This document shows, piece by piece, positions 5,191 through 62,135 of a stretch of 64,000 bases of DNA. Source of the stretch: Chiloscyllium plagiosum (Eukaryota); the NCBI RefSeq assembly GCF_004010195.1, contig NC_057718.1, positions 102,985,566 through 103,049,565 on the forward strand. Reading direction: 5' to 3'. The translations under genes were made by a program, and so were the position numbers. A model generated the notes under the pieces. It had not been told where the DNA came from. It was given only the letters and a program-made list of their open reading frames with translations, and made no database searches. The first letter of the stretch is position 1; each line of letters starts with the position of its first letter.

Positions 5191-5322
5191 ATTCCTGATG
5201 AAGGGCTTTTGCCCGAAATGTCAATTTTACGGCTCCTCAGATGCTGCTTGAACTGCTGTGCTTTTCCAGCACCACTCTAATCTAGACTCTGGTTTCCAGC
5301 ATCTGCAAGTCATTGTTTTTAC
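5191..5322 (+). mobile_element. Penelope-like terminal fragment (family A) starting at a hammerhead core
   Basis: attc-CTGATGA-a-GGGC-tttt-GCCC-GAAA-t-GTC at 5191-5222, followed by the family tail (gatgctgc...ttttccagca...ccagcatctgca). Confidence 0.8.
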
Positions 5323-5467
5323 CATGTTTCTGCTGTCCTTGTCCTTCTGATTTTGATGTTGACAACTGGGTTGCCTTCAAAATGAAACACTTCTAGCATT
5401 TCCTGCATCATATTAATTATCTCTTTCGGAAATAACTAGCCTCCTCCTAACGTTAACATCTTCCCAA

Positions 5468-8400
5468 ATAAAAACCGAAAGAACTGCGGATGCTGTAAAT
5501 CAGAAAGAAAAACAGAAATAGCTCGTAAAGCTCAGCAGGTCTGGCAGCATCGGTGAAGAGAAATCAGAGTTAATGTTTCAGGTGATGTGACCTTTCCTCA
5601 GAACTGATAGTAACTAGGCAAGTATCATTTATTAAGCAGAAGACAGGGTGGGAAGGGGTAAGATGTTAACATAAAACATAGAACAGTACAGCACAGTACA
5701 GGCCCTTCGGCCCTCAATGTTGTGCCGAACTTTTATCCTACTCTAAGGATTGTCCATGTACTTGTCCAAGAGTCGCTTAAATGTCTCTAATGTATCTGAC
5801 TGTACTCCCACTGCTGGCAGTGCATTCCACGCACCCATCACCTCTGTGTAAAGAACTTACCTCTGACATCTCCCCTAAACCTTCCTCCAATCACCTTAAA
5901 ATTATGCCCCTTCATGATCGACATTTCCATGCTGAGAAAAAGCCTCTGGCTATCCACTATATCTCTGCCTTTCATCATCCTCTACACCTCTATCAAGTCA
6001 CCTCTACCTTTCTTCGCTCCAATGAGAAAAGCCTCAACTCCCTTAATGTTTTGTCACAAAGACATACCCTTCAGTCCAGGCAGCATCTTGGTAAGTCTCG
6101 TCTGCACCCTCTCTAAAGCTTCCACATCCTTCCTATAATGAGGTGACCAGAACTGAATACAATATTCCAAGTGTGGTCTAACCAGGGGTTTATAGAGCTG
6201 CAGCATAACCTCCCGGCTCTTAAACGCAATCCCCTTGCTAATGAAAGCCAACACACCAAACCCCTTTTTAACAACCCTATCAACCTGGGTGGCAACTTTG
6301 AGGGATCTGTGGACATGGACCCAAGATCCCTCTTCCTTCACATTGCCAAGAATCCTGCCTTTAACCCTATATTCTGCATTCAAATTCGACCTTCCAAAGT
6401 GAATGTCTTCACACTTTTCCAGGTTAAACTCCACCTGCCACTTCTCAGCCCAGCTCTGCATCCTGTCAATGCCCCTCTGCAACCTACTACAGCTCTCCAC
6501 ACTATCCATAACTCCACCGACCATTGTGTCATCAGCAAACTTACCAGTCCACCCTTCCACCTGATTCCTTTCTTGAACAAGTGAATAACATTTTCCACCC
6601 TTCAATCATCTGGCGTTACTCCAGTGGACAGTGAGGATGCAAAGATCATCACCAAAGGCACAGCAATCTCTTTCCTCTCTTCCTGTAATAACCTAGCATA
6701 TATCCTGTCTGGCTCAGGGGATTTACCTATTCTTACGATTTTCAAAATATTCAGCATATCCTCCTTCTTAACATCAACCTGTTCAAACATATCAGTCTGT
6801 TTCACACTATCCTCACAAACAACAAGGTCCCTCTCAGTAGTGAATACTGAAGCAAAGTATTTATTCACGACCTCCCCTACCTCCTCCAACTCCAGGCGCA
6901 ATTTCCCTCCACTATCTCCACTGATTGTCCCTACCCTCAGTCTGGCCATCCTCTTGTTTCTCACTTAGTGTAGAACGCCTTGGGGTTTTCCTTAAGCCTA
7001 ATTGTTAAAGCCTTTCTGAGCTCTCCTAAGTCCATTCTTCAGCTCCTTCCTGGCTATCTTGTAACCCGTTAGAACCTTATCTGATCCTTGCCTCCTCAAC
7101 CTTAAGTAAGCTTCCGTCTTCTTGACTAGATGTTCCACATCTCTTGTCACCCAAGGTTCTTTCACCCTACCATCCCTTCCTTGCCTCAGTGGGACAAACC
7201 TGTCCAGCATTATCAGCAAGTGCTCCCTAAACAATCTCTATATTTCTGTCGTGCATTTCCCTGAGAACATCTATTCCCAATTTAAGTGTCCCAGTTCCTG
7301 CTTAATAGCATTGTAATTCCCCCTTCCCCAATTAAATACTTTCCCATACCATCTGTTCCTATCCCCCTCCATGAGTGTAGTAAAGGAGTTGTGATCACTA
7401 TCACCAAAATGCTCTCCCACCAAGAGATCTGACACCTGGCCTGGTTCATTGTCAAGCACCAAATAAAATATAGCCCCCTCTCTAGTTGACCTATCTATAT
7501 TTTGAGTCAGGAACCCTTCCCGGACATGCCTGACAAAAACTGCTCCATCCAAACTATCTGAACTAAGGAGGTTCCAATCAATATTAGGGAAGTTAAAGTC
7601 ACCCATGACAACAACCCTGTTACTTCTGCACCTTTCCAAAATCTGCCTCCCAATCTGCTCCTCCGTGTCTCTGTTGCTATGGGGGGGCCGTAGAAAACTC
7701 CCAATAAAGTGCCTGCTCCTTTCCTTTTTCTGACATCCCCCCATTCTGACTGTGTAGACAAACCCTCCTCAGTGACCTTCCTTTCTACAGCTGTGATACT
7801 ATCCCTGATTAACAATGCCAATCCCTCACCTCTTTTACCGCCCCCTCATTCTTTTTGAAACATCTAAACTCTGGAACATCCAACAACCATTCCTGCCCCT
7901 GTGATATCCAAGTCTCTGTATTGGCCATGACATCATAGTTCCAAGTACTGATCCATACTCTGAATTCATCACTCTTATTCCTGATACATCTTGAATTAAA
8001 ATAGACCCACTTGAACTCATCACACTGCACCTTTGACCTATCAAATGACTATCCTTCCTCACAGACTCTCTGCACGCTGTACCTGGCTGTGCATTACCTA
8101 TTCCATCATCTGATCCATAGCTCAGGTTCCATAGCTCAGGTTTCCCCCCCCCTCCCGCCAATCTAGTTTAAACCCTCCCGAAGAGCTCTAGTAAAACCTC
8201 CCACCCAGGATATTGGTGCCCCTCCAGTTCAGATGCAACCTGTCCTTCTTGTACAGATCCCACCTTCCCCAGTGATCCACATATCTGAAGCCCTCCCTCC
8301 TACACCAACCCTGCAGCCACATGTTCATCAGCACACGTTCTCTGTTCCTAGCCTCACTAGCCTGTGGCACTGATAGCAATCCTGAGATTACTACTCTGAT

Positions 8401-8935
8401 CCTCCTGCCTTCTAGCTTCCAACTTAACTCCCGACATTCTCTTTTCAGGTCCTCATCCCTTTCCCTATCTATGTCATTGGTACCAATGTGTACCATAACT
8501 TTTGGGTGCTCTCCCACTTCCTTAGGAAGGTAGATATGGATAGAGGTCAAAGAGAGAGAAAACATTAGCACAGACAATGGACTGGATAACGATCTGGTTG
8601 GGAGGGTGAATAGCTGTTAATGTTAGTTGCTAATAATGGGTTGTGTGTAATAGCAGACTATGTGATAACAAGGCCTGGTAAAAGGGGCTTGGGGTAAGGA
8701 CATGGGAGAAGCTCAAGCCTTGAAGTTATTGAACTCGATATTGAGTCCTGAAAGCTGCGGGGTCCCCAAGTGGAATATTAGATGCTGTGCTTCTGGTTCG
8801 CCCTGAGCTTCGCTGAAGCACTGAAGCAAGCCTGAGGCAAGCCTGAGGCAGAGAGGTTGGCCTGGGAACAGGGTGGGCTGTTAGAGTGGCAGGCACCTGA
8901 AAGCTCAGGGTCTTTTTAGTGGATGGAACATATTC
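5468..8935 (-). mobile_element. Penelope-like element 3' part (family C: GIY-YIG C-terminus plus terminal repeat), split by a CR1 insertion
   Basis: 8722-8835 on minus translates SGLLQCFSEAQGEPEAQHLIFHLGTPQLSGLNIEFNNF, resembling the C-terminus of the PLE GIY-YIG domain. Segments 8530-8620 and 5468-5665 join into the uninterrupted copy at 31630-31940. Hammerhead-like core at 5567-5606. Confidence 0.75.
5668..8522 (-). mobile_element. CR1 LINE with ORF1 SGNH esterase remnant, endonuclease and partly deleted RT
   Basis: VMVHIGTNDI...DRLHLNWRG (esterase); ETW, GDFNFPNIDW, DSDHN (endonuclease); KFADD, LEYCIQFWSPHYRKD (RT). Middle of RT is missing near 6560-6600; (ttctatg)-type tail near 5670. 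Confidence 0.93.
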
Positions 8936-10190: not shown

Positions 10191-11184
10191 AAACTAACTG
10201 TTGAATCCTAAACAATCATAAAGGTAACAGAGGGACAGTGGCCAAGCTGCCTGTGATAGGCTAGTCTGGGTCCCAGTGACCGATGACCCAATGGGATGAA
10301 TAACATTTCACTGTAGTCAGTATGCTATCTTTTGCTCTACTATTTTTCCTTCAATGCATTTCAGAATGCAGTTTATCTGGAGGCACACTAGCGATATTCC
10401 TGAGACACCATGGATTGGCTCATGATGAAGAGGCAATTTGGTAAGTGGTAGACCACAACTAATACCAAAAGGTTGATTTATGACGATAATTAAGCATTCA
10501 ATCTGGAATTGCAACTGTACAGCACATTCAGCTGTCTCATCCACGACTCCTAGTCTCGCATCTTATCACGTTTTGAAATCAAAGACAATGAGAAGGACTG
10601 AGCTGGACCACATCTTTCTCATTGTTTTTGCTGCTTTTTGTACTACAGCTGGTGAAAGGGGACAGTAAGGGAACTGACGCACACCCATGTACCCTGTGCC
10701 CCAGGCTCAGAGGATGCATTAACCGTCTACCTGCCGACATTTCGAAGGCTGTTTCTGGTCAATAGGTCAAACCCAAGCAGGAACGCACCAACCACCCCAG
10801 GGATGTCCTGATGACTGAAGAGAGGTCTGAACAAAACTTCAACAAGCCCAAAATACTGTGGTCACTAGAAATCTGAAACAAGAACAGAAAATGCTAGAAA
10901 GAATCAATAGATCAGACAGTTTTCATGGGAAAGAAACATGGTGAGATGGGTGGTATTTAATATCAGCTGAGGTGAGGGATTTTAATTGAGCAGTATTGCC
11001 TTGGAGAGACAATGGGTGAGTGTGCTATTGCTAGAATGTTAATCCAGAGACCCTGGTAATGGTCTGAGAACCCAGGTTCAAATCCTGCCAGGGCAGATGG
11101 TGGAATTTTAATCCAATAAAAATCTGGAATTAAGAATTTAATTACAGCCGTTAAATCATTGTCAGGAAAACCTCATCTGGTTCA

Positions 11185-13398: not shown

Positions 13399-15457
13399 CA
13401 GTAAACATAAAATTCTGATGACTGCTACCTTTTAATATTGCAAAATTATGGCTTCTTTGTACAGAGAGAAAAAGACCTACAGGACTACTGGCACTTGTGG
13501 GATTGTACTGCTGTGTACCTGTGTGCCTTTCCAAGAGTAGAGTGAATGAAAATCAGAATCTGAGAGAAGAAAATAAGAAAGCAATAAATCTTGCTGCTGA
13601 TCTCTGTGTTACTTGTGTTAAAAAATGGGTCTTAATAAACCCTATAGAAATGTTCTGTACCCTACATGTGGAAAGCTTTTCCTCAACAGTAGCAATTAAA
13701 TCGCTTGGAACAAGTTCTGTTTCCATCACATTGACAGCCACGAAGATGCTGTGTCAAATTAAAATGACAAACTGTATGCGTGAGAATAAAAATAAGTTCC
13801 ACAACACAGAGGAGAGACTATCGCTATTTTCTGAGCAATCTTGGCATGAAGCTAAATTACTGCTCACGTTTGTACTTGTTTGTGAGTTGTCATAGCTACA
13901 CAACAATCAACAATTGGAGTCTCCATAAACCGCTGTCAGAGCTTCCATAACTACCTTTCACCTGTCAATGCTTAGTTGGGCTTTTTCCCTCTTGACATTG
14001 GAAGTGATGACTTTCATTGAGTGGTAAAACTACAGTCATAAGCCTGAAGGTGCTGGTATTCAAAAGGAGGCCATGTTGCAGTTTGAAGGGAAGCTCAGGG
14101 ACAGGAGCTGTTCGATGGTGTGGGATGGGAGCTTATGATGATATCAAATTTGTGAATAGGACTGTTCTGATCATTTTTAACCCAAACAATAACAAATCAA
14201 ATCCAGAGGACTACTTGCTCCATGGCAATTGCAATGCCCAGTCAGAGCCAAGACTATGGCACTGTGGGTGCTCTAACTTCTGATAGAAGTGCTGGAGGGA
14301 GGGAGAAGTGTGGAAAGGCTAATAGGGGTCAGAGATACATCAGTGAGAGGGGTCAGTTAACACTCATTCAGGTATGGACGGCACCCCAAGTGTTGACTCC
14401 CAGGTCTCTCTCCCTCTCCCCCTCCACCCCTCCTCCCCTTACCTCCATCCTCAGCCAGAGGTCATGGTTCATGTTGGGACCAATGACACAGGAGGAAAGA
14501 GGAATGAGGTATGACTAGCAGGCTTTAGAGAGTTAGGGATGACATTGAAAAGCAGGAGTTCAAAGGGAGTAATCTCCAGGTCACTCTTGTTGACATGCAG
14601 TAGGGAGTATCGGAATAGGAGTGTAGAGCAGATGGAGATATGGTTGGAGAAATGGTAAAAGGCAGAGGAATTTAGATTCCAGAGGGGTTATTTTTGAGGG
14701 TGGTCGGACTTGGAATACGTTGGATGTGTTACATCTGAAGAGGAGTAGAACCAACATCCTCATAGGCGATCAGATAATGCTGTTAGGGCAGATTTGAACT
14801 AGACTGGCAGAGGAATGGGATCCTGACAGGTAATTTAGAAAGGAGAGAATCTGAAGTGGAATTAGATGTTAAATCACAAATCCAGATGACAGAGGCGAGA
14901 TAAGAAAGAAGTGAGTCTGTCAAAATGAATATGTTTTAGTACAAGGAACCTGAAGAATCAGACAGATTAGTTGAGGGCACAGAGAGGGAGCAGGTACATA
15001 ATATAATAACCACAACTGAGACTTGGCTGAAAAGTGGGCAAAATTGGCAGTTTATCATTCCAATAGGGCATTCTGATGAGGTATGAGAGAGAGAGAGAGA
15101 GAGAGAAAGAAAAGGAGAATGTCACAAAATTGAATAAGGAATCAATTAGAGCAGTGAGGACAGATGATATCCTAGACATCAAAAGGGACCATACGAGTGA
15201 ACGCTAAAAAAAGGGACAAACACTCTGTCAGGTGGATACTATAGGTCCCCACATAGTCGGGGAGAGACAGAGGGTCAAATATGCAATCCAATGTCAGGCA
15301 AATGTAAGAGTGATGAAGCAGTAATGGACTTGGATTTTGAAGACCCAAATGTTAACTGAGAGATAGTTTGAGTGTACAAGGTAGGGAGGGAGCAAACCCT
15401 TAAATTATATCCAAGGGAACCTTTTTAACCAGTACGTAGAAAGCTCAATAAGAGAGG

Positions 15458-15662
15458 TTTGTTCATTATATAATTTCAGTTGCATCACACTGTAAACTTT
15501 CGCTATAAATTCTGTGTCTTACAATCTTATACTCCACAACCACCTGATGAAGGAGCAGTGCTCTGAAAACTAGTGCTTCCAAATAAACCTGTTGGACTAT
15601 AACCTGGTGTTGTGTGATTTTTAACTCTGTCCACCTGAGTCCAACATCACACCTCCACATCA
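15458..15662 (+). mobile_element. Penelope-like terminal fragment (family B) with TSD
   Basis: Flanked by caataagagagg (15446-15457) and caataagacagg (15663-15674); contains hammerhead core at 15541-15575. Confidence 0.8.
15541..15575 (+). ncRNA. Minimal type I hammerhead ribozyme motif (family B)
   Basis: CAC-CUGAUGA-A-GGAGC-agu-GCUCU-GAAA-a-CUA-GUG; helix I CAC/GUG. Activity untested. Confidence 0.7.
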
Positions 15663-16916: not shown

Positions 16917-18070
16917 ATGGCTTTTAAAATTGCTAAAGAGGTTCTGGGATTTGAAGATGATTCTCAAATTTGCCAAGAAAGTTTAGAAGGAAAGAAAAAG
17001 ACCATACTTCTAGAATTAGCAAATAAATTAGATCGGGGTTTAATCAAAGACAAAAGTAAAGCTGAAATTGTAAGGGAGTTACTCAACCGCTTAGGCCTGT
17101 CAAAGAAACAGACAAGTGCAGTAGAGGTAGAAAAACTTAAATTACAATTGAGGAAAATGGAGTTAGAAAATAAACAAAGAGAGAGGAAAGAGAGAAAGAA
17201 AGAGAGAAGAGAGAGAGAGGATAAAGAGAGAGAAGGTTCTTAGCTGAGCAAGGAGAGAGAGAAGAATAGGAGAGACAAAAAGAGAGAGAATTTGAACTTG
17301 AGAAGTTGCGACTTAGTCAGCAAATTCAAGTTAACAGGATGGAGATTAAAAGAGAACTTAGTGATATATACAAATATGTCAAAATCCTGCCACATTTCGA
17401 TGAGAAAGATGTTGAAGCCTTCTTTATTTCATTTGAAAACTTGGCTAGGCAGATGGAGAGGTCCAAGGATTTATGGGTAATGCTAGTTTAGACTAAACTG
17501 GTAGACAGAGCTAGTGAGGCATTTGCCGCATTGTCAGGTGAGGTGTCAAGAGATTATGAAGAGGTTAAACAGGCTATTTTAAGTGCTTATGAATTGGTAC
17601 CAGAAGCATATAGACTGCGGTTCAGAAACACAAAGAAGGAACCAGGTCAGACTTATGTTGAGTTTGAAAGAAGTAAACATAATCATTTTGATCAATGGGT
17701 GCATGCTTTGAAAATAGATAGGACCTTTTAGGCTCTAAGAGAGATTATTCTGCAGGAGGAGTTTAAAAACTCACTTCCAGAGATGGTAAGAATTCATATG
17801 GAGGAACAGAAAGTTCAGGAAGTGAGAAGGGCAGCAGAATTAGCAGGTGAGTACATGTTGGTGCATAAGACAAGCTTCCGGCCAGAATTTCATCCTGTGA
17901 GGGACAGAAGTTGGGAGAAGGGGAGACTCTACTCTACAAAACCAAGAGTAGAGAGCACTGGTAATAACTTACCACAGGATTAAGAAAAAGCCCAAGAGGG
18001 TGGACTGGAGGTGAAAGGCCTCAGGTGTTTACACTGTGGTAAAGTGAGACACACAAAGTCACAGTGCTGG
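16917..18070 (+). pseudogene. gag: gag remnant with coiled-coil, SCAN-like capsid and zinc knuckle
   Basis: LPHFDEKDVEAFFISFE, AYELVPEAYRLRFR, EEFKNSLPEMVR, CLHCGKVRHTKSQC across frameshifted ORFs. Confidence 0.85.
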
Positions 18071-18239
18071 TCGTTAAAGAAAGGCACTGTGGGAAAAGAT
18101 GTGGTAAAAGAAGCTAAGCCTGTGGCATTAGTGAAGGTAGTAAAGGAGACCCCAAGAAGAGCTGAGAAGCTGCAGGACAGTGCACAGCCTAGGCAGGGTC
18201 TGGATATGGAGTTAGTACCTGATCTCTCCAAAGAATTCA

Positions 18240-18560
18240 CCTCTGTGGGTAAAGTTTACTCAGAAAGAATGGAGGGAGAAGGACAAGAAGTTGTCATTTT
18301 GAGAGATACAGGTTCTAACCAGTGGCTGATAGTAAGGGATGAGTGCATATGCACTCTTTCTGATCTGTTACCTGAGAGTGTGGTAATTTTTGGGATAGAT
18401 GGACAGAAATTTAGCTTTCCCCGTTGTAAGATCAGGTTGGAGTGCCAACTCAAGATTGGGGAAGTTACAGTGGGAGTGATTGACAGAGGGTCAGTTCCAG
18501 GAATACTGTTGGTTCTTGGGAACGATTTAGCAGGATCCAAGGTGGGAGTGACACCCCTTG
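18240..18560 (+). pseudogene. Retropepsin (aspartic protease) remnant
   Basis: VVILRDTGS...LVLGNDL in ORF 18011-18850. Confidence 0.85.
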
Positions 18561-18899
18561 TTGTGGAGAAGCTCAATGAAGACCAAGAAACTGAGGAGTT
18601 AAAACACTATCATAAGTCATGGCACAAAATGAAAACTAAAGAGAAAGATGAAGGAGCTGAGGTTCAGTTAGTGGATACCCTGTTTGATGTAATACTGCAG
18701 GAAAAACCTGAACAGGCAGAGGGTCAGGCAGAAGTGTTTACTCCTGAAAGGCTAAGGGATTTGCAACAGAAAGACAAGATGATAAAAGGTGAATGCATAC
18801 TCCAAAAAGGAGGTAGAGAATATTCCAGAGGGTTAATATCTGAAAGATAGAATCCTAAGGTGGAAATGGAGACCACGGCAGGTTAGTGCAGAGGAGAAA

Positions 18900-22596: not shown

Positions 22597-22768
22597 ATCA
22601 AAAATCAGAAATTGCTGGAAAAGCTCAGCAGGTCTGGCAGCATCTGTGCAGAAAAATCAGAGTTAACATTTTAGGTCAAGTGACCCTTCTTCAGATCTGA
22701 GATTTTCCAGCAATTTCTACTTTTGTTTCTGATTTACAGCATCTGCAGTTCTCTCAGTTTTTATTTCG
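22597..22768. mobile_element. Penelope-like family C fragments in inverted arrangement
   Basis: Minus arm with ctgaaga-a-gggtc-actt-gacct-aaaa-tgtt (22661-22696) followed by a plus-strand tail. Confidence 0.75.
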
Positions 22769-25700
22769 AAGTGTGAAAGTTGTGGAGTAGGGACTTAAAA
22801 AGGAAGTTAGGAAAACTAAGTGTATGAGAAAGTATTGGCGTGTGGAATAAAAGAAAGCCCATAAGTTTTATTTTTACATTTAAAGACTAAGAGAATAACT
22901 GGAGAAAGGATAGTGCTCTTTAGGGACAATGAAGGCACCCTGTGTGTGGAGCCGGAAGACATGGACATAGCCCTCAGCGAATACCCTCTACTAATGTACA
23001 TGGTGCAAAAGGATAGCACAGATATAAACATTAGGGTTCGGGAGTGTGAAATACCAGAATAAATTAATAGAGAGAAAGAGAGAGAAGATGTACAAACAGG
23101 TTTAGCAGTTATAAAAGTGGATATACCCACAGGTCTTGACGCAGTGTATCCCAGACTGTTGAGGGAGGAGGTATCAGTAATTTTCAAATCCTCTCTGACC
23201 ACTGGAAGTGTCCTCAGGTGTGTAGCTAGAGGAATGGAGAACTGCTAACATTGTCCTGTTATTAAAGAAAACAAAGGAAGGAATAGACCAGGAAATGACA
23301 GGCCAGTCAGTCTAACCTCACTCGTGGGGAAGTTATTAGAAAGCATTTCTGAGGGACAGAGTGTGTCTGCATTTGGAGACACACTGATTTATCAGGGATA
23401 GTCAGTATGGATTTTTTAAGGCATGTTTTAATTTTACAAATTTGATTGAATTTTTTGAGGAGCTATCCAGGGGTGTTGATGAGGGTGGTCGACATGGACT
23501 TAAGAAACGCTTTTGATAAGCTCCCTCATGGCAGACGGATGAAGACAGTAAGAGCCCACGGAATCTAAGGCAAAGTGGCACATTGGACCCAAAATTAGCC
23601 GAGAGGCAGGAAGCAGAGGGTGGTGGTAGGGGGGTGATTCTGTAATGGGAATTCTGTTTCCAGTGGGCGTTCCACAGGCCTCAGGGCTCTTGGTGTACAT
23701 TAACAATATGGACAGAAAGGTAAGGGATATGATTGAGAAATTCACAGATGACACGATAATTGGTGGGGGGTAAATATTGAGGAGGGTAGCTGTAAACTAC
23801 CGGAGGATATCAATGGACTGGTCAGCTGGGCAGGAGAGGGGCAAATGGAATTCAACCAGGAAAAGTGAGAGGGATTGCCCTTGGGAAGGGCCAACAAAGC
23901 AAGGATTTACACTCTGAATGGCAGGAGCCTGGGAAATCCTGAAGATCAGAGGGAACTGGAATCTATATCCACAGATCCCTGAAGGTAGCAGGGCAGGTGG
24001 CAAATGGCAAACTTGGCTCGATTAGCTGAGCTGTGGAATACAGGAGCAGGGAGATTGTGCTGGAACTGTATAAAACACTACTTGGGCACAGAAGGATGTG
24101 ACTGCACTCAAATAGGTGCAGAGGTGATTTGCCAGGATGTTGCCTGGGCTGAAGGGTGTTTGATGCGAAAAATGATTAGATAGACTGGGGGATTTGATGG
24201 AGGTGTGTAAAATTATGAGGAAGGTTGAGAGGGGATTTGATGGAGGTGTGTAAAATTATGAGGAGCGCAGATGGTAGATAGGAAGGCATGTTTTGCTTTA
24301 GTAGGGGGGGCAATAGAGATAGCCAGTAGACAGGCATAGATTGAAGGTATGAGATAAAAGGCTAAGAGTAGAGTTGAAGAGAGTTTTCTTTTTAACCTGG
24401 GAGTATGAAACTCACTGTCTGAGAGGTTGGTTGAGTTAAACTTGGTGTAACATTTCAGCAGGATTTAGATTTTCACTTGCTATGCCATAGCTTCCAGGGC
24501 AATGGGCCAAGAGCTGGCAGACTGGGTAAGTGAAGTCAGATCTTTGTCGAGCCACGCAGACACGATGGGCCAAATAGACTCTTTCTGTGCTGTTAACATT
24601 TATGACAGGACTCCACTGAAATCGAGATTGCCATTTAGTTCTTGCATTGTCCCAGTTCGGACCACAACTGACTTCCTTTCGATACAAGCCAGGCTGAAGT
24701 TCTTCCAGGAATAAAATGTGCCTGTTTCATCCTGGAGAAATATTACCCATTTCAACTCCGCTAAACATTTGGGGAATTCTTGTGAAAATGCTGCATTAGG
24801 TCTTAAAGAGTTCACATCACGAGGCTGCCAAACCCAAAGCGGCTCTCTGCACAGGGAATTGGTAATGATGGAATACAGAGAAACAGGAAACATATTAACC
24901 TGCCAGTGGTGATTGGTCTGCACACCCCAAGCATCACTCAGTGTCAATAATGTAGTCATCAGGTGGGACATCACAGCCAGGACGCCAAGATGTGTGGAGT
25001 TTTATTTTGTGTCAGATTTGTATTTTTTTTTTGGTTTTGTAACCCAATCATTTAATATCGCAGACTTTCATTTTTCAGTTTATTGGTTGGGCAATAACAG
25101 TAAAATTATGTTCTGTACTTATGGTGTCTCTCTATGGTAAATTTATGATGATACTGTAATTTTCCTCTATTACCTCGTTGCCAGTGCACATTATTATGCG
25201 ACTGTCTCACCGTTTACCCATAGGAGAAACAGTGCCATTAAAAAGTGTGCAATTCATTCTCTGAGGTTCCGAATTAACAATAAAATTCTACCTCTGCTCT
25301 TGTGAACAGATGTAGTCTTGCGCTCATCCAGTCTAAAAACTGCTACACTTAACTACAGTTACTGAGCCATGACCTTCAGCCTAAGGCTAGTGGCAATAAA
25401 ATTTTCATGCAACCATATGGAAGAATATTTGTAATAGAGATTTACTGTCAGCAACAATCCCAGAGGAGAAAATAAGGAAGCTGTAACATATTGCTTATTG
25501 TAAATCACTAAGACTTCAACAGAGAAATGAAGTCTCCTCTAGGAAGGGCTACCCTACCTCAAACCTTTAAGTATTGGGCATGCAGCTTATCAAGAATACA
25601 TATAGTGAGGCGGATATGCTGTTTTGCTAAGTATGTCAGATGTTGTTCCAGTAAGTCCTGCAATTAGTTTCTACTGTGATTAATCATCATTACTGTAATT

Positions 25701-31510: not shown

Positions 31511-31628
31511 ATGACCACATTACCATGCGTAGGAATTAGCGGAACAATGATTCCTACATGACAACAGTGACCACACATGAAAAGTTGAAGTGCTTCCTGG
31601 AGTTATTGAAATGGGCCCGGTGAATGCA

Positions 31629-31940
31629 TTCTCCATTAACAGCTACTGTAGTCACTCTCCCAGCCAGAGCGACATCCACTCCCTTGTCTGCCCAATTGTT
31701 CTCCTCTCTCTTTGGGCTTTATTTCCGTCTATTGTTTATTCCTTACTCCCTCCCCCCACCCTATCTTTAGTATATAAACCGATATTTTCCCAGCTACCAT
31801 CAGTTCTGAGGAAGGGTCACCGGACCGGTAACATTAACACTGACTTCTCTCCACAGATGCTGCCAGACCTGCTGAGCTTTTCAGGCAACTTTTGCTTTTG
31901 TTTCTGATTTGCAGCATCTGTAGTTCCTTTGGTTTTTGTA
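31629..31940 (+). mobile_element. Penelope-like family C terminal repeat with degenerate hammerhead
   Basis: agtt-ctgagga-a-gggtc-accg-gaccg-gtaa-catt-aac at 31802-31838; flanked by tgaatgca at 31621-31628 and 31941-31948. Confidence 0.78.
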
Positions 31941-37519: not shown

Positions 37520-38235
37520 CTACTATGCAGGTACAGCAAGTAGTCAGGAAAGCTCATAGAATGTTATTCAAGGGAGTTGAATACTAAAGTTCAGTTTTAC
37601 ACGGCATTACGAGATCACGCTGAGCTTTGCGCAATATTTCTACCTTTATTTGAGGAAGGATGTAAATCCATTGGAAGCCGTTCAGAGAACATTATCGTTA
37701 TTAACCTCTGGATTTGGGTTCTCATATAAGGAATAGTTGGACAGGCCTGGCTTGTATCCAAGAAGAGAAAGAGACAATTTGATTGAAATGTATGAGATCT
37801 CATGGAGGTTTGAGTGGGCAGACGTGGAAAGGATGGTTCCTTTCAGGGAACAAATTAAAACCAAGTCGGAAAAGGGTCACTGGACCTGAGATTTTGATTT
37901 CTCTGGATTTCACAGGATTTCTCTCCAAAGATGCTGCCAGACCTGCTGAGATTTTCCAGCAATTTTGAATCTAAAACTAGAGGTCATTTGTTTGCTGAAA
38001 TAAACGGATGTTACCATTTTAACACCAAAATTAGGAGAAATCTTTTTCCTGTCCAAGGATTGTAAATCTTTCTAACTGTCTTCCTGGCAGAATCCCTTCA
38101 ATATTTTTAAAGCAGAGGGTGAGATCTCCTCAATAAGGAAGGAGCTGAAAGGTTATCAGGATCGGCAGGAGTACAGAGTAATCACTGAGTGGCAGAGGAC
38201 AAGTTAGAAGGGCTGAGTGGCTTACTTCAGCTCTT
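37520..38235 (+). mobile_element. Old CR1-type 3' fragment containing a family C piece (about 37865-37970)
   Basis: Degenerate YLRKDV.LE.VQR motif and a CR1-like 3' UTR. Confidence 0.6.
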
Positions 38236-40182: not shown

Positions 40183-40310
40183 AAAAAACCGAGAGAACTG
40201 CAGATGCTGGAAGTTGGACACAAAAACATAAAAATGTTAGCAGGTCTGGCAGCATTTGTGGAGAGAAATCAAAGTACACCTTTCGGGTCCAGTCACCCTT
40301 CTTCAGAATG
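40183..40310 (-). mobile_element. Penelope-like family C fragment
   Basis: Minus strand ctgaaga-a-gggtg-actg-gaccc-gaaa followed by the family tail. Confidence 0.72.
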
Positions 40311-40689: not shown

Positions 40690-41000
40690 TTAGAGTAGAG
40701 TCATAGAGATGTACAGCATGGAAACAGACCCATTGGTCCAACTTGGTAAAAACAAGGGCTGCAGATGCTGGAAACCAGAGTCTAGGTGAGAGTGGTGCTG
40801 GAAAAGCACAGCAGGTCAGGCAGCATCCGAGGAGCAGGAAAACCGATGTTTCGGGCAGAAGCCCTTCATCAGGAATACAGCTTTAGTCCAACCTGTCCAT
40901 GCCGACCAGATTTCCCAATCCAATCTAGTCCCACCTGCCAGCACCTGGCCCCTATCCCTCCAAACCCTTCCTATCCATGTACCCATCCAAATGCCTTTTA
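40690..41000 (-). mobile_element. CR1 3' fragment interrupted by a family A Penelope-like insert (40746-40876)
   Basis: CR1 tail on both sides; insert on minus begins attc-CTGATGA-a-GGGC-ttct-GCCC-GAAA-c-ATC. Confidence 0.85.
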
Positions 41001-43299: not shown

Positions 43300-43516
43300 T
43301 AAAAGCAAAATGCAGCCGGTACTGGAGATCTGAAAGAAACGCAGAAATTGCTGGAGAAACTCAGCAGGTCTGGCAGTGTCTGTGGAGACAGAAACAGAGT
43401 TGACGTTTCAAATCCTGTATGACCCTTCCTCAGAACTGTTCTGGCCAAAACTCATATTGGACACAAAGTGTTAACTCTGTTTGTCTCTCCTGCTGACTTT
43501 CTCCAGCAATTTCTGT
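43300..43516. mobile_element. Penelope-like family C inverted pair
   Basis: Minus arm 43300-43437, then plus arm 43438-43516. Confidence 0.78.
43398..43437 (-). ncRNA. Minimal type I hammerhead ribozyme motif (family C)
   Basis: AGUU-CUGAGGA-A-GGGUC-auacag-GAUUU-GAAA-C-GUC-AACU; helix I AGUU/AACU perfect, stem II with G.U pairs. Confidence 0.7.
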
Positions 43517-43944
43517 GAGCGTTTTAATTTTTATAAAGTCATTAATTTGTAAAGTGATTTCTGTTGCACAAGGTACGTGCTTTCCTTAAATCTCAATTGC
43601 TTTGCTAGTCCATATTTATATTTTCAGGTTGACTGATAAGATTCTTGAAGAAGTTTGGTCTAAATTGTAGTCAGTAAGACCAGCGTAGAAAATGGTTCAA
43701 TTTCACCAGGCGTTTTGGTGTAGGTTATGTTGAGGGGACTGGGCCATAGAAAGAGGCTGCTTTCTTTTCATGGGATGTGGGCATCGATGGTTGGGCCAGC
43801 ATTTATTGCCCGTCCCCAGTTGCCTTTGAGGAGGTGGGATGAACTGCCTTCCTGAACCGCTACAGTCCATGTGCAAGCAGAAAGTATGAACAGGTGGTGT
43901 AACAACATATAGCACTTCACAGAACGGCACTCTGGTCATTCTGT

Positions 43945-50514: not shown

Positions 50515-51135
50515 GGTGGTATTATCACTGAACTGTTAACCCAGAGACCCAGGTCATGTTCTGGATTTATTTGAGGGAGGCACAATGATGTCCTTTGATC
50601 AGTTAGCACAGAAAAGTGAGCTATCTAACAGAGACCTCTTTCGTCTTTTCAAGTTAGGGATTTTATTTTTTAAAAAAACTACACTTTTGACTGATCTCTA
50701 CAATCCGACATAGAGAGGAGTCTTGGGTTTGAACCCCACCACAGCAGATGGTGGAATTTGAATTCAGTTAAAAATCTACAATTAAGAGTCTAATGATGAC
50801 CATGAATCTATTGCCAATTGTTGGGGAAGAAACCCCATCTGCTTCACTAATGCCCTTTAGGGAAGAAAGCTACCATCCTTTCAGAGCAGATGCTGGAATC
50901 TGTACTTCAAACAATAAATGCTGGAGATCACAGCATCCAAGGAGAGAGAGCCAGCTAATGTTCTGAGTCTATGTGACTCTTCATCAGAACTCTGTCAATC
51001 TGCAGCATTTGTTGTTTTCAAATTGGCATCGTTACCTGGTCTGGCCTACATGTGACTCCACACCCATGGCAATGTGAACAACTAGAGATGGGCAGTAAAT
51101 GCTGGCGTTTGCAGTGATACCCTCATCCCATGAAT
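50515..51135 (+). mobile_element. SINE-B interrupted by an L1 fragment (50564-50718) and a family C insert (about 50883-51020)
   Basis: SINE consensus resumes after each insert. The family C insert has agtt-ctgatga-a-gagtc-acata-gactc on minus (50953-50991). Confidence 0.7.
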
Positions 51136-52010: not shown

Positions 52011-52083
52011 GTGATTAATAGTGTTACCTGTTCTATTCCTTTTAGAAATGGAGTTTTGCTTATTCATATCTTAACTTGAAGAG

Positions 52084-53431: not shown

Positions 53432-53606
53432 CCACGAGGAGGTGCTGGTGTTGAACTGGGGTGGGCAAAGACAGAAGTCACACGACACCAGGATATAGTC
53501 CACAAAGGAGCAGCGCTCTGAAAGCTTGTGATTTTAAGCAAGCCTGCTGTCATGTAACTTCTGTCTTTGTCTGCCCCAGTCCAATACCAGCACTTGCATG
53601 TCATGA
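53432..53606. mobile_element. Penelope-like family B inverted pair
   Basis: Minus arm 53432-53502; plus arm starts aaggagcagcgctctgaaagcttgtg (hammerhead lacking CUGA). Confidence 0.72.
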
Positions 53607-53938
53607 TAACAATCGACACCACAAACTGCCAGCTCAAAGTGGACAGGATCTCCAAGAAGATCACACATATCGACACAAAAGAGACGTATAGGACAGGAAC
53701 AGGCCCTTCAGCCCTCCAAACCTGTGAAAATGCCCTAACTAAACAGAAAAACAAACCTTCTGCCTTTATTTGGTCACTATCCCTCTATTCTCTCCCTGTT
53801 CGTGTAACCATCCAGATGCCTCTTAAATGTCCCCAGTGTGCCTGCTTCCACCACCTCCCCTGGCAGTGTGTTCCAGGCTCCTACCACTCTCTGCATGAAA
53901 AACCTTCCTCACACAGATCCCTTTAACTTTTCCCCTCT

Positions 53939-54062
53939 GGATGTAGGTTTGTTCGCTGAGCAGGAAGGTTCATTCCCAGACGTTTCGTCACCCTACTAGG
54001 TAACATCTTCTACATTTACATCCAGAATCTCAACCTGAGCTACAAATCTTCTCAAAACTTGC
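53939..54062. mobile_element. Penelope-like family D inverted insert within a CR1 3' fragment (53670-54087)
   Basis: Minus strand gaaga-t-gttacc-tagtag-ggtgac-gaaa-c-gtc (53979-54010); flanks tttcccctct and tttcctctc resemble a TSD. Confidence 0.6.
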
Positions 54063-54499
54063 ATTTCCTCTCCCACCTTGAACCTGACACCAAGTTTCTA
54101 CACTTCACCTACTGAAGAAGCAGTGCTCTGAAATCTTGTGATTTTGTTTTTAAACATATTTTGATTGAAAAACAGGTACTTTAATATTACAACAAATACA
54201 AAACAATACAATTCAAAACAATACAAAGAAAGAACACCAAAAAAATGTAAAAACCCAAACTGCCCTCATGTACAAATATATAAATATGTATAAAAAATAT
54301 TTTAAAAACTCAACTAACTAAACTAAATAAATAATAACTAACAACATACTAATAAGTTATCATACAGTTCAGCAAAAGAAAATACTGACTCTCGAATATC
54401 GAGAGCATTAATTTTCACCTATTCATACGTTCGCAGATCCCTCTCTCTGGATATTGGACTCATAAAACACAATCATTACGGCTATATAAAAGCCATTGT

Positions 54500-57480
54500 T
54501 AGTATGGCAGACAAATCTGTATCCTGGTTGTTCAAAAAGGGCCACCATGTCCTCTAAAAATTCTCAGTTTTGTGGTGTACCATATTTGTGAGAAATTCCA
54601 AGGGGATATGCTCCATAACAATCTTATGCCAACCCGACAGGCCCTGGGGATTTTTGGACACCCAACCTAATGAGATATTCTTCCTTGCACTGAAAGTGAG
54701 GATGTTGAAAAGTTACTTACAGGCAACACACCCTTACACTCAAAGTCCTCTCCATTGCACCCGTCACAGCGCTCCAATGTGTTTGAAGCCTACCACAGGA
54801 CCAGAGACAATGGGTAAGAGTGCCCGTACAGCCCGTACAGACCTTGCACTTGGGATATGTTGAAGATACCCCTGGTTTAAATTTTGACAAATGGTCCAGA
54901 GCCAAATGGACCCTGCGGAGAATCTTAAACTAGTAGAAAGTGAGGACTGCAGATGCTGGAGATCAGAGTTGACAGTGAAAAGCACAGCAGGTCAGGTAGC
55001 ATCCGAGGTGCAGGAGAATCGATGTTTCAAGCACAGGCCTGTCATCAGGAATAATGAAGAGTTTCTACCTGAAGAGCTTATACCTCTATGTCAGATTTGT
55101 AGGGATCAGTCAAAAGTGTAGTCTTTTTTTGAATAAAGTCCCTAACTTGAAAAAAAAATCCCTGTTAGATTATTCGTATTTCCGTGCTAACTGATCATAG
55201 GACTGATCATTGTGTCTCCCTCAAATAAATCACCCCTGCAAGACACACCCCTAGCTGCCCAACATTTGAACCCTGAATCTATCATCCCTGGTTGAAAACC
55301 TGGCATACCCACTATAGGTGTAAATAAAGATGCTTTGCCAATATTGCATTCCCTCTGCCAAATTGCCCTCCATGCTTTAACAGTCTGGGTAACTATTGGG
55401 TTATGGGAATATTCCCTAACTCTCCTCATTTTGTCTAGAAACAGCAAGCTGGTAAGGGAGTAACTTTGACATCTAACCATATTGAAAGAGGGTCCCCGAA
55501 GGACCAATCACTCACTTAAGATAAAGCAAGCTTAGTTGGTAGCTTTTAATGTCTGGGACGTCCACTCCCCCCAGTCTGTGAGGCAACTGCAGTTTGACTA
55601 ATTTAATGATGGGCCACTTACGATGCCAAATAAAGGAGCTGAACCAACCATTCAGTCTCCTGAATGTTTGCTTATCGAAAATCAGGGGGAGCATCCATAT
55701 CGGGTATAACAAACGGGGGAGAATATTCATCTTAATAATCACTATCTGACCCAACCACGAGACTGGAAGCGCCTGTCATCTCTAAAGGTCTTGTTTGAAT
55801 TTGTCGAATAATTGAACAAATTAGCTTTGAACAATCGATCCAGAACTGGAGTGATGAACATGCCCAAATAACAACCCCCCCCCCCCCCCGTGACCACTTA
55901 AATGGGAATTGATATTCGCCCTCAAGACCCAGCTCCTTCGTAAGACCACCCATGGGTATAGCCTCTAATTTTGCAAAATTAATCTTGTCCCCCGAAAAGG
56001 CGCCAAACGCACAGATGCATTGTATGAGGCGAGGCACTGAAACTGCTGGATTTGACAAAAAAATTAGGACATCGTCCATATACAGTGAAATCGTATGTGC
56101 TTTTGACCCCACTTCTGGAGCTGATATATTGGGATCCCTACTAATGGCTTCCACCAATGGTTCAATCACCAGCCATGGTGAAAGGGAAACAGCCCTGCTG
56201 GCTGCCCCTAAAAATGTTAAAATTGCTTGATCATACCCCAGTGGAGATGACCACAGCAAGAGGGTCACTGTTGAGAACCTTTACCCACCTTATAAAGGCT
56301 TTGCCCAAGCAAAACCACTGTAGAGTATAGAACAGGTACGGCCACTCAACTGAGTCAAGTGTCTTCTCTGCATCTTGAGAAATCACCAGTCCCTGTGTTG
56401 ACTGTTGTTGACATACTTGAATTACGTTAAGCGGTCTCCTAACATTATTGGAGAATCTGCGGCCCCTTATGAAGCCCGTCTGGTCCTCTTTAACAATAGA
56501 AGGTAACACAGTCTCCAGCCTTAATGCAAGAGTCTTGGAGAGGACTTCAAAGTCCACATTTAAGAGTGAGATGGGTCTGTACGAAGCACAGTCCTCCGGG
56601 ACCTTCCCTTTTTAAAGAATAAGCAAAATATTGACTTCTCTTACAGATGCAGGATATAATCACGACTGTATAGTCATTAAACATATTGAGCATCGGGCCT
56701 GATAATATGTTTATAAATTCCTTATAGAATTCGCTGGGAAGTCCATCAGGACCAGGCGCCTTCCCACTCTGAAGCTGCTTCACAGCCTCCTGCACCTCTT
56801 GCTCTGATAAGGGGGCATTGAGAAAGGACTCTTGTCAGGGGTCACGCCCGAGAGCTCCAGATCCTTATAAAAGGATTCCATTTTGGCCCGTCCCTCCTTA
56901 CAATCCTCAGATTGGAATAATTCAGAGTAAAATCTCAGGAATGCCGCATTAATCTTTTTGGAATCACATGTTAGGTTCCCAGACCCTTCCCTAATTGCCG
57001 TAATGGCTTGAGGGGCGCTCCTTTTCCTGGCGAGATACTCTAGGTACTTGCCAGGTCTGTCACCATGCTCATATAACCTCTGTCTTGCAAAAGTAAGCTC
57101 CTTCTTGCTGTCTCCACGAGCACAGAATTCAATGCAGACTGTAGCGCCGTAATCCTCTGTAGCTTGACCAACGAGGCCCTGTCAAAGTAAGCCTGCTCGG
57201 CTGCCTTCAACCGTGCTTCGAGTTGTTGCTGCTTGCCCTTCTGCCACTTCCTACAGGCAGAGTAGGAAATAACTAACCCCCTGGCATAGACTTTGGCAGT
57301 TTCTCAAAGGACGGACAGGCTACTAACCAAGCCTGAGTTAATATCTCGGAACGCCTGAAATTCCCTCGAGAAATACTCCACAAGCCTATTATTCTTAAGG
57401 ATAAAGGGATCCATTTGACAGTGCCTCGGGCCCACTGTAACATCCTAAATCTTAACCAACAGGTACACTGGAGCATGACC
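54500..57480 (-). pseudogene. L1 ORF2 remnant (end of endonuclease, RT, cysteine-rich C-terminus)
   Basis: HAPVY, GKAPGPDGLPSEFYK, EDQTGFIRGR, QDAEK, SLYMDDVL, KINFAK, PKCK...LTHCLWSC. Confidence 0.9.
54934..55053 (-). mobile_element. Family A Penelope-like insert within the L1
   Basis: Minus strand begins attc-ctgatga-caggcctgtgctt-gaaa-catc; tail matches 34345-34442. Confidence 0.75.
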
Positions 57481-57514
57481 AACATGTCTATTTGCACATA
57501 CTAAATCGTTCAGA

Positions 57515-58327
57515 TTAGATTAATTTGTCCACCAAGTCTCTTGCCTTCTCGGACGTGTCAACGAGATGTACGGATCCATCTAAGGTGATCCGAAGCACTG
57601 CCGGATACCTCAGAGAGTACTGGATCCCAAGCTCCCTCAGTCTTCTCTTGACACCATCATAGGTGTTTTGTTTCTGCATCACCGCCGCTGAGCGGTCCTG
57701 GAAGAACATGATCTTGGAGCCCTCGTAAAGAAGGGCCTTCGGATCCTTCCCCTGGATTCTGGAAACTTCCACGATTCTCTCCTTATCTCTAAAGTGATGA
57801 AACAGAACCAGGAGAGGACGAGGATGTTGACCCAGACCTGACCTCCATACCGTGACCCGGTGAACCCTCTCAATCTTCAAGCCTCTCACGCCAGCGTCCA
57901 AGTTAAGGAATTTCAGCAACCAGTCCTCAATAAGTTCCACCAGCCACTCACCTTCCTGACCCTCCGGCAGACCGACAATCCTAATATTTCTTCTCTTGCC
58001 CCTGTTCTCAACGTCATGCACTTGATCATGCAAACTACGGACCTGCCTCCCCAGGGCTTGGATCCTATCCTTGGAGGAACTGGCATCAGCTTCCACCACT
58101 GTGACCCTGTGTTCTAACTCATCGGTCCTCTTCTCCAGGTCTCCCAACTGCAGTTCATGCTTCTGCAGTATGATAGATATTGGACCAGCTTCTCCTCTAT
58201 CTGCTTCCCCAACATCATGTGAGACTTTGAGAGCTCCTTCACGAGGGGCCGGTAGGTAATTGAGTCCGAGGATCCTGCAGGCTGGGCCGCTGTCCGCCTC
58301 GGACGCTCCTCCTCCCTTCTTTGGCAT
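57515..58327 (-). CDS. L1 ORF1p (coiled-coil, RRM, CTD), probably non-functional
   Basis: 270-aa ORF with heptads, then DVENRGKRRNIRIVGLPE, IERVHR, PRPLLV.FH.FRDKE, YSLRYPA.L. Confidence 0.85.
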   Translation of the reverse strand: MPKKGGGASEADSGPACRILGLNYLPAPREGALKVSHDVGEADRGEAGPISIILQKHELQLGDLEKRTDELEHRVTVVEADASSSKDRIQALGRQVRSLHDQVHDVENRGKRRNIRIVGLPEGQEGEWLVELIEDWLLKFLNLDAGVRGLKIERVHRVTVWRSGLGQHPRPLLVLFHHFRDKERIVEVSRIQGKDPKALLYEGSKIMFFQDRSAAVMQKQNTYDGVKRRLRELGIQYSLRYPAVLRITLDGSVHLVDTSEKARDLVDKLI

Positions 58328-59676
58328 CCCTGCATGACGAAAACCAAGGCAAGTTGCTTCTGACAGTTTCCTGGGACTCCACGACCTTTCCAGAGAGCCA
58401 GAATATTGCGGTGGTCTGGGTAGGGCAGGTCAGGACTATCTCCCGCTTACGATGCGGTGCGGAGCTCTGAAACACAATCTTCCTAGATCGCCGCCATCTT
58501 GCAACCCCCTGAAATCTTGTGATTTTAAATAAACGGTTGGACTATAACCTGGTGTTATGTGACTGTTGACTTAATTAGTAAGAGAATCAAGAGTTATAAG
58601 GAAATGACAGGAAACGGTATTGATGATGATCAGCTCAGCCACAATCTCATTGAATGGCAGCGCAGACGCGATGGGCTGAATGGCCTACTGCTGCTTCTCT
58701 GCCTTTTGATTTTATGGACTGGTGCTGAACATTACATAATCATCAGCGGACATCCCACTTCTGAACCTGTGCTGAGACCTGAGTCATATCACAGGGCAAT
58801 TTATTGTAAGATTTCCAGATCTTGCTTGACTGAGTTAGCAGGTACAGAAGAGATAGAGTGCCCTCTGCAAAAAGGTAAAGCAGCAGGGTGTTTATTGTAA
58901 CAACTGGCCCCACTGAATCCAAATGGCAGGACTGAAATCAATACAGTAGTTAACTCTTCTTCAGTAAAAGAACAGGAAAACCCAAGCGAGAATAATAGAT
59001 ATGTAGTGGTGAGCTACAGAGTGGAACAGATCATTTGGGATCTGTTATAAGGCCACAGTGCACATCTTGAAAAACCAGCCAGAAAAGAAAGCAGTGTGAC
59101 GTTCCACTGTAACTTTTATTAGCCGTCAGCGATACCATTCCAGGCTAACAGTAAGCACATTATAATGGCCATAAAATAAAAATGGACACAATTTTAAAAT
59201 GTAATAAATAACAGGCACATTTGCAGCAGATTAATCTCAGGCTTCTCCAGATATTCGTAAAATATTCACTTAGGATTTATGATAATAAGGAAGAAAGTGT
59301 TGAGTGGCCCACTGTGTTTTACTGCTTGCCATCTTTGCAGCATAATACAACATAGTCAAGAGCAAAAGCTTTTCAAAAGCATATGCCACCGGCTCACTCC
59401 GACTTGCACCATCTTTTTATGATTTAACATACTCTGGTTTATGGTATTACTTTCATCTTCTATCATTGGAATAACCATTGGAATAACCATTGGCAACAGT
59501 TCCACGAAATCAGGGAGATTTCAAGGCCTAGAATTTGCTGTCAAAATTAACAGTGAGGCCAGCAACGCCGAGGGAGATTGGCTGATCTCTAGAAATCGGA
59601 AAGGCGGCTGGATTGGTTGTACTGTTCTGCTGTTAACTTTGTGCAAACAACATCAAACTGTTTGCCTCCCTGTTGT

Positions 59677-60945: not shown

Positions 60946-61195
60946 CGAGCATTAGGTGCCCAGTTTCCCTCACTGCGACTCTATTTGCTCACATTTTTAG
61001 GACTCCTAGATGAAAAAAACAAAAATCGAGAGCATGCAAAATCAAGTTTCACCCGAGATACCACGGGATTCCCTGTCACAGCAAAATCTGATACAGAACA
61101 GCAGGATTGATACAGTGCAGAAGGAGGCCATTTGGCCCATCATGTCTGTGCCGGCTCCCAAACAGGCATCTCACAGGGTGTCACTCTTCTTGACT

Positions 61196-61715
61196 TAGAA
61201 CAAAGAACAAGAACAAAGAAAATTTACAGCGCAGGAACACGCCCTTCGGCCCTCCAAGCCTGAGCCGATCCAAATCTACTGTCTACACCTGTCGCCCAAT
61301 TCCTAAGCATCTGTTTCCCTCTGCTCCCTATCTACTCATGCATTTGTCCAGACGCATCTTAAATGAATCTACCGAGCCTGCCTCTACTACCTCTGCCAGC
61401 AAAGCATTCCAGGCACCTACCACCTTCTGTGTAAAGTACTTGCCGCGTGCATCCCCCTTAAACATTTCACCTCTCACCTTGAAAGCGTGACCTCTCGTTA
61501 TTGAATCCTTCACCCTGGGAAAAAGCTTATCTCTATCTACTCTGTCTATACCTTTCATGATTTTGTAGACCTCAATCAGGTCCCCCTTCCTTTTTTGCTC
61601 ATGAAAATAATCCTAACCTACTCAACCTCTCTTCATAGCTAGCACCTTCCATACCAAGCAATATCCTCATAAACCTTCTCTGTACCCTCTCCAAAGCGAC
61701 CACATCCTTTTGGTA
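61196..61715 (-). mobile_element. CR1 3' fragment
   Basis: KDVVALERVQRRF, TRGHAFKVRG, YFTQKVVGAWNAL; tail reads (agaacaa)n on +. Confidence 0.9.
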
Positions 61716-61964
61716 AGGTTCGACCTGAGCTGTACACAGACTTCTTCCTGTGACCCTGTGCGTTCTCTTCCAATAACCACCTATTTCAAATTGGAATGCT
61801 TTAAATGTCCCTGCCTCCACTACCCTCTCACATGGCGCATTTCAGAACCTAGCTGCTTGCTGCGTGAAAAGTATTTCCCTCACTTCAATCTTGTTTCTTT
61901 TATTGATTACGTTAAACCTGCACTGTCTCAGCCTTGATCCTTTCACAAGTGAGAAGAGTTTCTA

Positions 61965-62135
61965 AGCAGGACCTGCAGATAGAGAAACAGTGTTAACATT
62001 TCAAGTCCATTACAACTTCTTTGGAAGTTCTGAAGAAATCATACTAGACTCAAAACGTTAACTCTGTTTCTCTCTCCAAAGATGTTGCTGAGCTCCTCCA
62101 AGTTCCTCTGCGTTTCTATTAGATTTCCAGCACCC
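61965..62135. mobile_element. Penelope-like family C inverted pair
   Basis: Plus arm agtt-ctgaaga...gactc-aaaa-cgtt-aact (62026-62063), preceded by an inverted arm. Confidence 0.7.

Follow-up and report, generated by a model that had tools for sequence, protein, structure and literature searches.

A 64,000-nucleotide stretch of the genome of the shark Chiloscyllium plagiosum (contig NC_057718.1, forward strand, positions 102,985,566 to 103,049,565; hereafter the window) carries numerous short inserts with a minimal hammerhead ribozyme motif. These inserts are almost certainly the terminal-repeat (pLTR) ends of Penelope-like elements (PLEs), and they fall into four families, here called A to D. 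What stands out is their copy number, together with a tendency, seen in three families out of four, for copies to end just before the ribozyme. The resulting stubs are probably 5'-truncated insertions, mainly run-off copies of uncleaved RNA from families that appear to be of the Neptune type.

Family identity and abundance

A sequence-only reading of the window had proposed about four Penelope-like families with a very large population of hammerhead-bearing termini, and both parts of the proposal hold. The families are represented by four profile hidden Markov models (built from 70, 25, 25 and 24 genomic copies), and longer copies of each reach upstream into a GIY-YIG-type endonuclease (EN) open reading frame (ORF), with a reverse transcriptase (RT) found in family A only. 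The stem sequences listed earlier likewise stand, GAGUC/GACUC being a subfamily of the GGGUC family. In family A, the commonest (stem II GGGC/GCCC), a Cys-rich linker and a GIY-YIG domain end ~215 nt before the core; the domain matches Pfam at E 2.5e-4 and 6.4e-4, below the Pfam cut-off. The RT region of this family returned no match in a PDB sequence search or a Pfam scan; its top match is a Chiloscyllium protein (89% identity), and its relatives bear RVT_1 and GIY-YIG. Families B (helix I AGUU/AACU, stem II GGGUC/GACCC) and C (CAC/GUG, GGAGC/GCUCY) code for the same linker and a YIGET-type motif in decayed ORFs, which gave no Pfam match, and family D (GUUACC/GGUGAC) has a GIY-YIG domain above the Pfam cut-off. 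A Zn-finger-like Cys cluster in the RT-EN linker precedes the EN in A, B and C and is absent in D. Such a motif marks Neptune and Nematis in the accessible text of Craig et al. 2021 (PMC8557442); thus, A to C may be labelled Neptune-type and D Penelope/Poseidon-type, labels that rest on the linker motif and not on an RT tree.

The family A module is present twice, once immediately before the start of the ORF and once ~215 nt past its stop, and is therefore a pLTR; this check of both ends covered family A. Among the 8 long loci fetched, which contain assembly gaps or frameshifts, there was no intact full-length ORF or element. As a separate observation, eight of 20 family A ORF-start loci (L219, L223, L224, L227, L228, L229, L232 and L235) begin in the tail and not in the hammerhead; at least L219, L223 and L227 run through 100-130 nt of ORF and then jump to the 3' repeat, and such internally deleted derivatives constitute a second class of 5' ends. 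In family C, e.g., at 15582-15625 (+), an AATAAA and a GU-rich stretch resembling a polyadenylation signal follow the hammerhead, and the layout of TATA, start, ribozyme and poly(A) recalls the R region of a long terminal repeat (LTR).

All 13 sites at which the motif had been reported are copies of the hammerhead-bearing repeat in varying decay, nine of them on the minus strand or in a minus-strand arm. The core and the NUH are intact at seven of these (5191, 5567, 15541, 34318, 40840, 43398 and 55020), and one or the other is damaged at the remaining six (22661, 31802, 40275, 50953, 53979 and 62026). The descriptor search proposed at that stage, run in its strict form (CUGANGA, one extra base, stem II of at least 4 bp, GAAA), picks out 8 motifs in the window; 12 dinucleotide shuffles contain 0.17 on average. 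Tolerating one mismatch gives 15 matches, compared with 4.0 in the shuffles, so the loose motif by itself is partly a matter of chance; a two-mismatch version (72 matches) was dropped as too loose. The family profiles give 23 matches in the window and none on the reversed sequence, and counting each of four head-to-head pairs as one leaves 19 insertions (Table 1). A search against Rfam with E as high as 10 returns 7 weak matches in the window, none of them to a hammerhead.

The window is typical of the genome, since copies occur in 87 of the 100 stretches of 10 kb that were sampled. This sample, placed at round-number positions on large contigs, comprises 962,650 non-N bases (~0.96 Mb) with 339 profile matches; 275 of them extend as far as the hammerhead (286 per Mb; bootstrap 245-331), and in 114 the core is intact with CUGANGA, GAAA and NUH (118 per Mb; 96-143). 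Extrapolated to the 3.56-Gb assembly, with the arms of pairs counted separately and small contigs outside the sample, these densities correspond to ~1.0 million hammerhead-reaching copies and ~0.42 million intact cores. With 33,740 bases, the module by itself accounts for about 3.5% of the sample, and its escaping Rfam matters for the annotation of shark repeats.

Ends and anatomy of the insertions

The 5' ends were scored against 58, 30, 47 and 50 cleaned long references for the four families, with positions given relative to C3, each insertion counted once and those with gaps or less than 60 nt of flank excluded; on artificial truncations, most calls fell within 3 nt. More than half of the insertions of families A to C begin within -12..+12 (A 68/128, B 33/59, C 23/46; 124/233 in total), just 7 of the 233 begin around the cleavage site at +25..+33, and 47 reach at least 100 nt upstream. 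Per 1000 nt at risk there are 27-39 ends at the front edge of the ribozyme and 2.6-7.3 on its 3' side (+13..+40), with upstream rates of 5.3-5.4 in A and C and 21 in B. The pattern is absent from family D, in which none of 24 sampled copies starts later than -28 (Fisher p 5e-8) and one of 42 further, non-randomly chosen copies begins at -12; the family D copy in the window, which begins at +2, is an exception. In 10 of the 20 family A ORF-start loci the core lies upstream; eight of these ten begin at -8 to +6, the other two starting at about -20 and at an assembly gap. A TATA-like box lies ~29-32 nt ahead of the front of the pile-up in all three families: TATAAA at -33 in 24 of 36 long copies of B, TATAAA at -40/-38 in 34 of 54 of C, and TTTATYT at -37..-35 in 34 of 65 of A. 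A splice-acceptor reading of the 5' edge was dropped, AG preceding helix I in family B only.

The 3' ends in the sample are bimodal, the two classes lying ~20-35 nt apart and corresponding to the PLE tail. Head-to-head pairs tend to combine one long with one short arm (49/58 vs ~29 expected, p 4e-8), in line with PMC8557442 and PMC3846280, and target-site duplications (TSDs) of 8-20 nt flank 14 of 104 short solo copies as against none of 60 mismatched flank pairs. The insertion at 34230-34442 is bounded by 16-nt TSDs (34214-34229 and 34443-34458), and its empty site is seen both in a near-identical neighbouring duplicate, at 33773-33788, and in contigs of two independent DNA runs. Same-strand pairs of one family within 500 nt number 8 among 253 copies; no tandem repeat of two or more hammerhead units occurs in the window and no arrays were seen among the 253 copies, with rare arrays elsewhere possible. 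Most stubs are single or head-to-head, and hence stand without a same-strand partner.

Some further loci bear on this anatomy. The duplicate just mentioned belongs to a 441-bp tandem repeat at 33690-34800 (99.7-100% identity), one copy of which has the family A insertion and the other not; these may be two alleles assembled in tandem, the insertion then being polymorphic. Two family D palindromes (L134 and L138) are centred near the TATA box (~-40 to -50), and those of A to C at the hammerhead. A small contig, L002 (G000:C101939), matches window positions 39342-40875 at 99.8% up to the core of a family A copy and beyond it runs on 5' into a longer copy of another subfamily, a junction that reflects either an assembly error or an allele whose 5' end was converted.

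The ribozyme fold and the origin of the stubs

A covariation check, also proposed from the sequence alone, reveals compensatory changes between families in helices I, II and III. A set of 122 intact cores was parsed by the positions of the core boxes alone and compared with 300 shuffles: II.2-II.4 are paired at 0.87-0.94 vs 0.57-0.77 in the shuffles and I.1-I.2 at 0.85-0.91 vs 0.61-0.70; these pairs and 15.2-16.2 exceed all 300 shuffles. The II.4 pair is C-G, U-A, G-C or A-U depending on the family, and I.2 correspondingly U-A, U-A, A-U or C-G. Altogether the stems change in compensatory fashion at six pair positions, and all core positions and the NUH are kept across the four families, which, rather than the 122 copies, represent the independent covariation events. 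II.1, mostly G-C or G-U, does not rise above the shuffles, because it hardly varies. The extra nucleotide before 10.1 is A in all 30 of the commonest motifs; the palindromic 15.2-16.2 reads CG in A, B and D, with CA as a decay product in B, and GC in C. Helix I of family A has only 2 bp, followed by a mismatch (I.3 is mostly U-U) and then an A-U pair. Folding of monomers does not yield the hammerhead core (z from -2.8 to +0.4). A 2017 paper reportedly deals with dimer cleavage of such minimal ribozymes.

The copies decay neutrally after insertion. Changes common to several family A copies amount to 0.3% (core) and 11.3% (body), and private changes to 2.0% and 1.6%, respectively (p 0.40); in B and C, core and body decay at like rates, and in D the private changes are borderline (3.5% vs 7.5%, p 0.057). 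A conservation of the core in the inserted A and D copies was considered and rejected as an artefact of subfamily differences in the body, the private changes of A being alike. With few shared changes in the core and private changes alike, selection would therefore have acted on the source elements and not on the inserted copies.

These patterns can be accommodated in a model wherein the TATA-like box, ~30 nt upstream, would set the RNA start at the front edge of the ribozyme; the same module would precede the ORF start, and a stub would be a copy of the first 100-130 nt of the RNA. The RT of the element probably primes 80-130 nt behind the ribozyme, at either of two sites in the tail, internal priming being assumed by analogy with the anole element in vitro. 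The RNA copied would be uncleaved, with a Neptune-type RT running off its 5' end just before helix I. On this account, run-off stubs of 100-130 nt would arise when priming falls within the tail of the 5' repeat of the RNA, ordinary truncated copies when it falls in the 3' repeat, and head-to-head arms from two priming events or a fold-back; the ribozyme would be selected in source elements only. For the anole element, the accessible text of Frangieh et al. 2024 (PMC11167929) describes a PLE protein that in vitro nicks AT-rich DNA and primes at two internal sites bounding the tail, with uncleaved RNA as the dominant template. Given the pile-up and the box ~30 nt ahead of it, the majority of stubs probably arose by run-off copying of RNA that had not been cleaved, and as few copies start at the cleavage site, cleaved RNA would seldom serve as template. 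The majority are probably inert as well, since they lack both the upstream box and a same-strand partner and, when head-to-head, would be locked in a hairpin. The more specific claim, that the Neptune-type transcript starts at the first bases of helix I and that retrotransposition chiefly generates a 100-130 nt run-off of the uncleaved 5' end, tail-primed upstream, we judge to be evenly poised. If it is true, the hundreds of thousands of stubs would document in vivo that template ends are not made by the ribozyme, the hammerhead would act as a 5'-leader switch on the mRNA, and the pile-up-free Poseidon-type family would provide a built-in control, the two clades handling templates differently.

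Several observations weigh against the run-off model. The model does not explain family D, in which a TATAAA at -47/-48 is followed by no accumulation of ends ~30 nt further on, and the box of family A departs from the canonical TATA. The pile-up spans ~25 nt, with calls that themselves carry an error of a few bases. An untemplated cap G shows no excess at 5' junctions, whether of solo copies (12/42 against 0.28 expected, in a test blurred by subfamily mis-assignment) or of inverted copies (3/27). About a quarter of the A and C insertions extend at least 100 nt upstream, and these would therefore derive from the 3' repeat of a longer RNA. RNA reads (1,321, from ~2% of one single-cell polyA run whose library is unsuited to the purpose; a second run gave none) map alike to both strands and pile up at neither start nor end.

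The chief alternative, possible though doubtful, retains the PLE origin and takes the pile-up not as an RNA start but as an RT stop or processing point at the ribozyme on templates primed in the 3' repeat, with folded RNA, a bound protein or the resolution of an insertion intermediate as candidate causes. The breadth of the pile-up, a third of whose members start inside the core (38/124 at 0..+12), agrees with it, as do inverted junctions at the same position and the negative cap-G result; however, a block by structure would be expected on the 3' side of the fold, where ends are few, the longer stem II of family D is accompanied by no pile-up, and the edge tracks the TATA-like box in three families. 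It is unlikely that the motifs are no longer ribozymes but conserved solely as protein-binding or promoter-proximal sequence, as the core and NUH are kept in four families with compensatory stems and, per the available text of PMC11167929, the anole PLE hammerhead cleaves with its protein present. What speaks for such a loss is the 2-bp helix I with its mismatch in family A, the monomer folds without a hammerhead core and with mostly unremarkable z-scores, and, as described in the accessible part of the source, 8 of 9 Xenopus retrozyme dimers that remained uncleaved in vitro.

Quite improbable, in our estimation, is the reading of the stubs as non-autonomous elements, akin to short interspersed elements or retrozymes, that are transcribed, self-cleave and are re-mobilised. 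The sheer number of copies, their uniform size of 100-130 nt and the TSDs would suit a family of this kind, internally deleted derivatives do occur, and PLE-derived retrozymes are described from one chondrichthyan in the accessible text of a preprint (bioRxiv 10.64898/2026.07.22.740005). Yet the upstream box is lost from the stubs, their ends rarely lie near the cleavage site, the core decays like the body after insertion and arrays were not seen among the 253 copies. Non-autonomous derivatives had been offered as an alternative from the sequence alone, but they are not needed, since the 5' ends vary and grade into long copies and same-strand tandems are rare.

Much of this anatomy is already published, namely the motif and its pLTR location, single motifs in mass, the tail, inverted copies, and candidate TATA and initiator (Inr) elements in the pLTR. 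The minimal hammerheads of metazoan PLE pLTRs, in the text available of Cervera and De la Pena 2014 (PMC4209133), likewise have a type I core with an extra nucleotide between 9 and 10.1, a G10.1-C11.1 pair and a loopless palindromic 15.2-16.2 pair, and likewise occur as many families per genome, mostly as single motifs from truncated PLEs. That study counts ~4,000 in the coelacanth and ~9,000 in Xenopus (with another descriptor) compared with, by extrapolation, ~420,000 intact cores and about a million copies in the shark, and proposes cleavage and circularisation of the template, whereas few shark copies have their 5' end at the cleavage site; the text portions and two supplement files consulted yielded no shark. 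PAc, the Poseidon of Anolis carolinensis (PMC11167929, in the text available), resembles the shark elements in its two tail-defining priming sites, uncleaved RNA template and hammerhead ahead of the ORF start, family D being of the same type by its ORF. Its ORF start, however, lies inside stem II as against an ATG ~165 nt behind the core in family A, and in the shark it is the Neptune-type families and not the PAc-like, Poseidon-type one that show the pile-up. PLEs with an endonuclease, as described by Arkhipova et al. 2013 (PMC3846280) and Craig et al. 2021 (PMC8557442), share 5' truncation, an adjacent inverted copy, a 30-40 nt tail at one end only, TSDs, and a putative TATA and Inr in the pLTR; in contrast to the shark, no 5' pile-up at the front edge of the hammerhead is described in the portions available of those papers. 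For Drosophila Penelope, a TATA-less internal promoter is described in the portions available of PMC2377424. Non-LTR retrozymes (Li, Clavereau, Pollet 2026, the above preprint, in its accessible text) similarly carry PLE pLTR-derived type I hammerheads, including monomers, but are defined by tandem arrangement of at least two hammerhead units, unlike the dispersed, single or head-to-head shark copies; its supplements may list its chondrichthyan families. Literature searches, with Repbase, Dfam, the supplements of the 2026 preprint and one PMC4209133 supplement file outside their scope, returned nothing on these shark families or the 5' pile-up. The role of hammerheads in PLEs is an open question in the text available of PMC8557442. 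Here, in a genome with about one million dated insertions, the junction statistics favour an uncleaved RNA template, in agreement with the single in vitro study, and the same genome offers a Neptune-versus-Poseidon contrast.

Copies and neighbouring repeats in the window

Table 1. Insertions of the four families in the window (A to C putatively Neptune-type, D putatively Poseidon-type)
Position	Strand	Family	Copy	Hammerhead core	Other features
4237..4345	-	C	stub	broken	begins +3 inside core; long tail
5187..5323	+	A	stub	intact; C3 5195, H17 5222	begins 8-9 nt ahead of core; helix I; long tail
5470..5671	-	B	copy	intact; C3 5601, H17 5572	~70 nt of upstream terminal repeat
10848..10929	-	B	tail-only remnant	no hammerhead	weak profile match
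15455..15660	+	C	copy	intact; C3 15544, H17 15572	TATAAA box upstream
22601..22791	-/+	B	head-to-head	GAAA box mutated in minus arm	minus arm 22601-22700; plus arm from 22693
31627..31937	+	B	copy	GAAA box mutated	~180 nt of upstream terminal repeat with TATAAA box
34230-34442	-/+	A	head-to-head	intact in plus arm; C3 34318	minus arm short tail; plus arm long tail
37872..37967	+	B	stub	broken	
40184..40309	-	B	stub	kept; NUH lost	12-nt TSD with one mismatch
40744..40880	-	A	stub	intact; C3 40872	inside CR1-like 3' end; begins 8 nt before core
43307..43526	-/+	B	head-to-head	intact in minus arm; C3 43433	minus arm 43307-43438; degraded plus arm 43458-43526
50921..50991	-	B, GAGUC/GACUC subfamily	stub	GAAA box mutated	
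53443..53585		C	head-to-head	intact core absent	
53931..54062	-/+	D	two arms		minus arm 53931-54010 from core +2; short plus tail arm ~54011-54062
54106..54142	+	C	short remnant	boxes kept; stem II shortened	
54935..55053	-	A	stub	intact; C3 55048	begins 5 nt before core
58501..58576	+	C	remnant	first box missing	
61978..62137	+	B	stub, 62026-62137	GAAA box mutated	degraded inverted arm upstream

The window consists mainly of decayed repeats. A tandem array of ~14 units of 25 bp lies at 1650-2006. Decayed pieces of an LTR-retroelement ORF, recognised by Pfam, occupy 17984-21476 (+) in an order unusual for the Gypsy type, with the integrase (19061-19438) followed by the RT (20096-20893) and RNase H (21000-21476); this integrase-first order presumably recalls the Gmr1 clade. 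At 55732-58429 (-) lies a broken long interspersed element, which we take to be L1/Tx1-like, with an ORF1-like frame (57515-58429) and RT pieces (PF00078). Many CR1/L2-like 3' ends (repeat families D2-D16) are scattered throughout the window, and several of them host PLE stub insertions.

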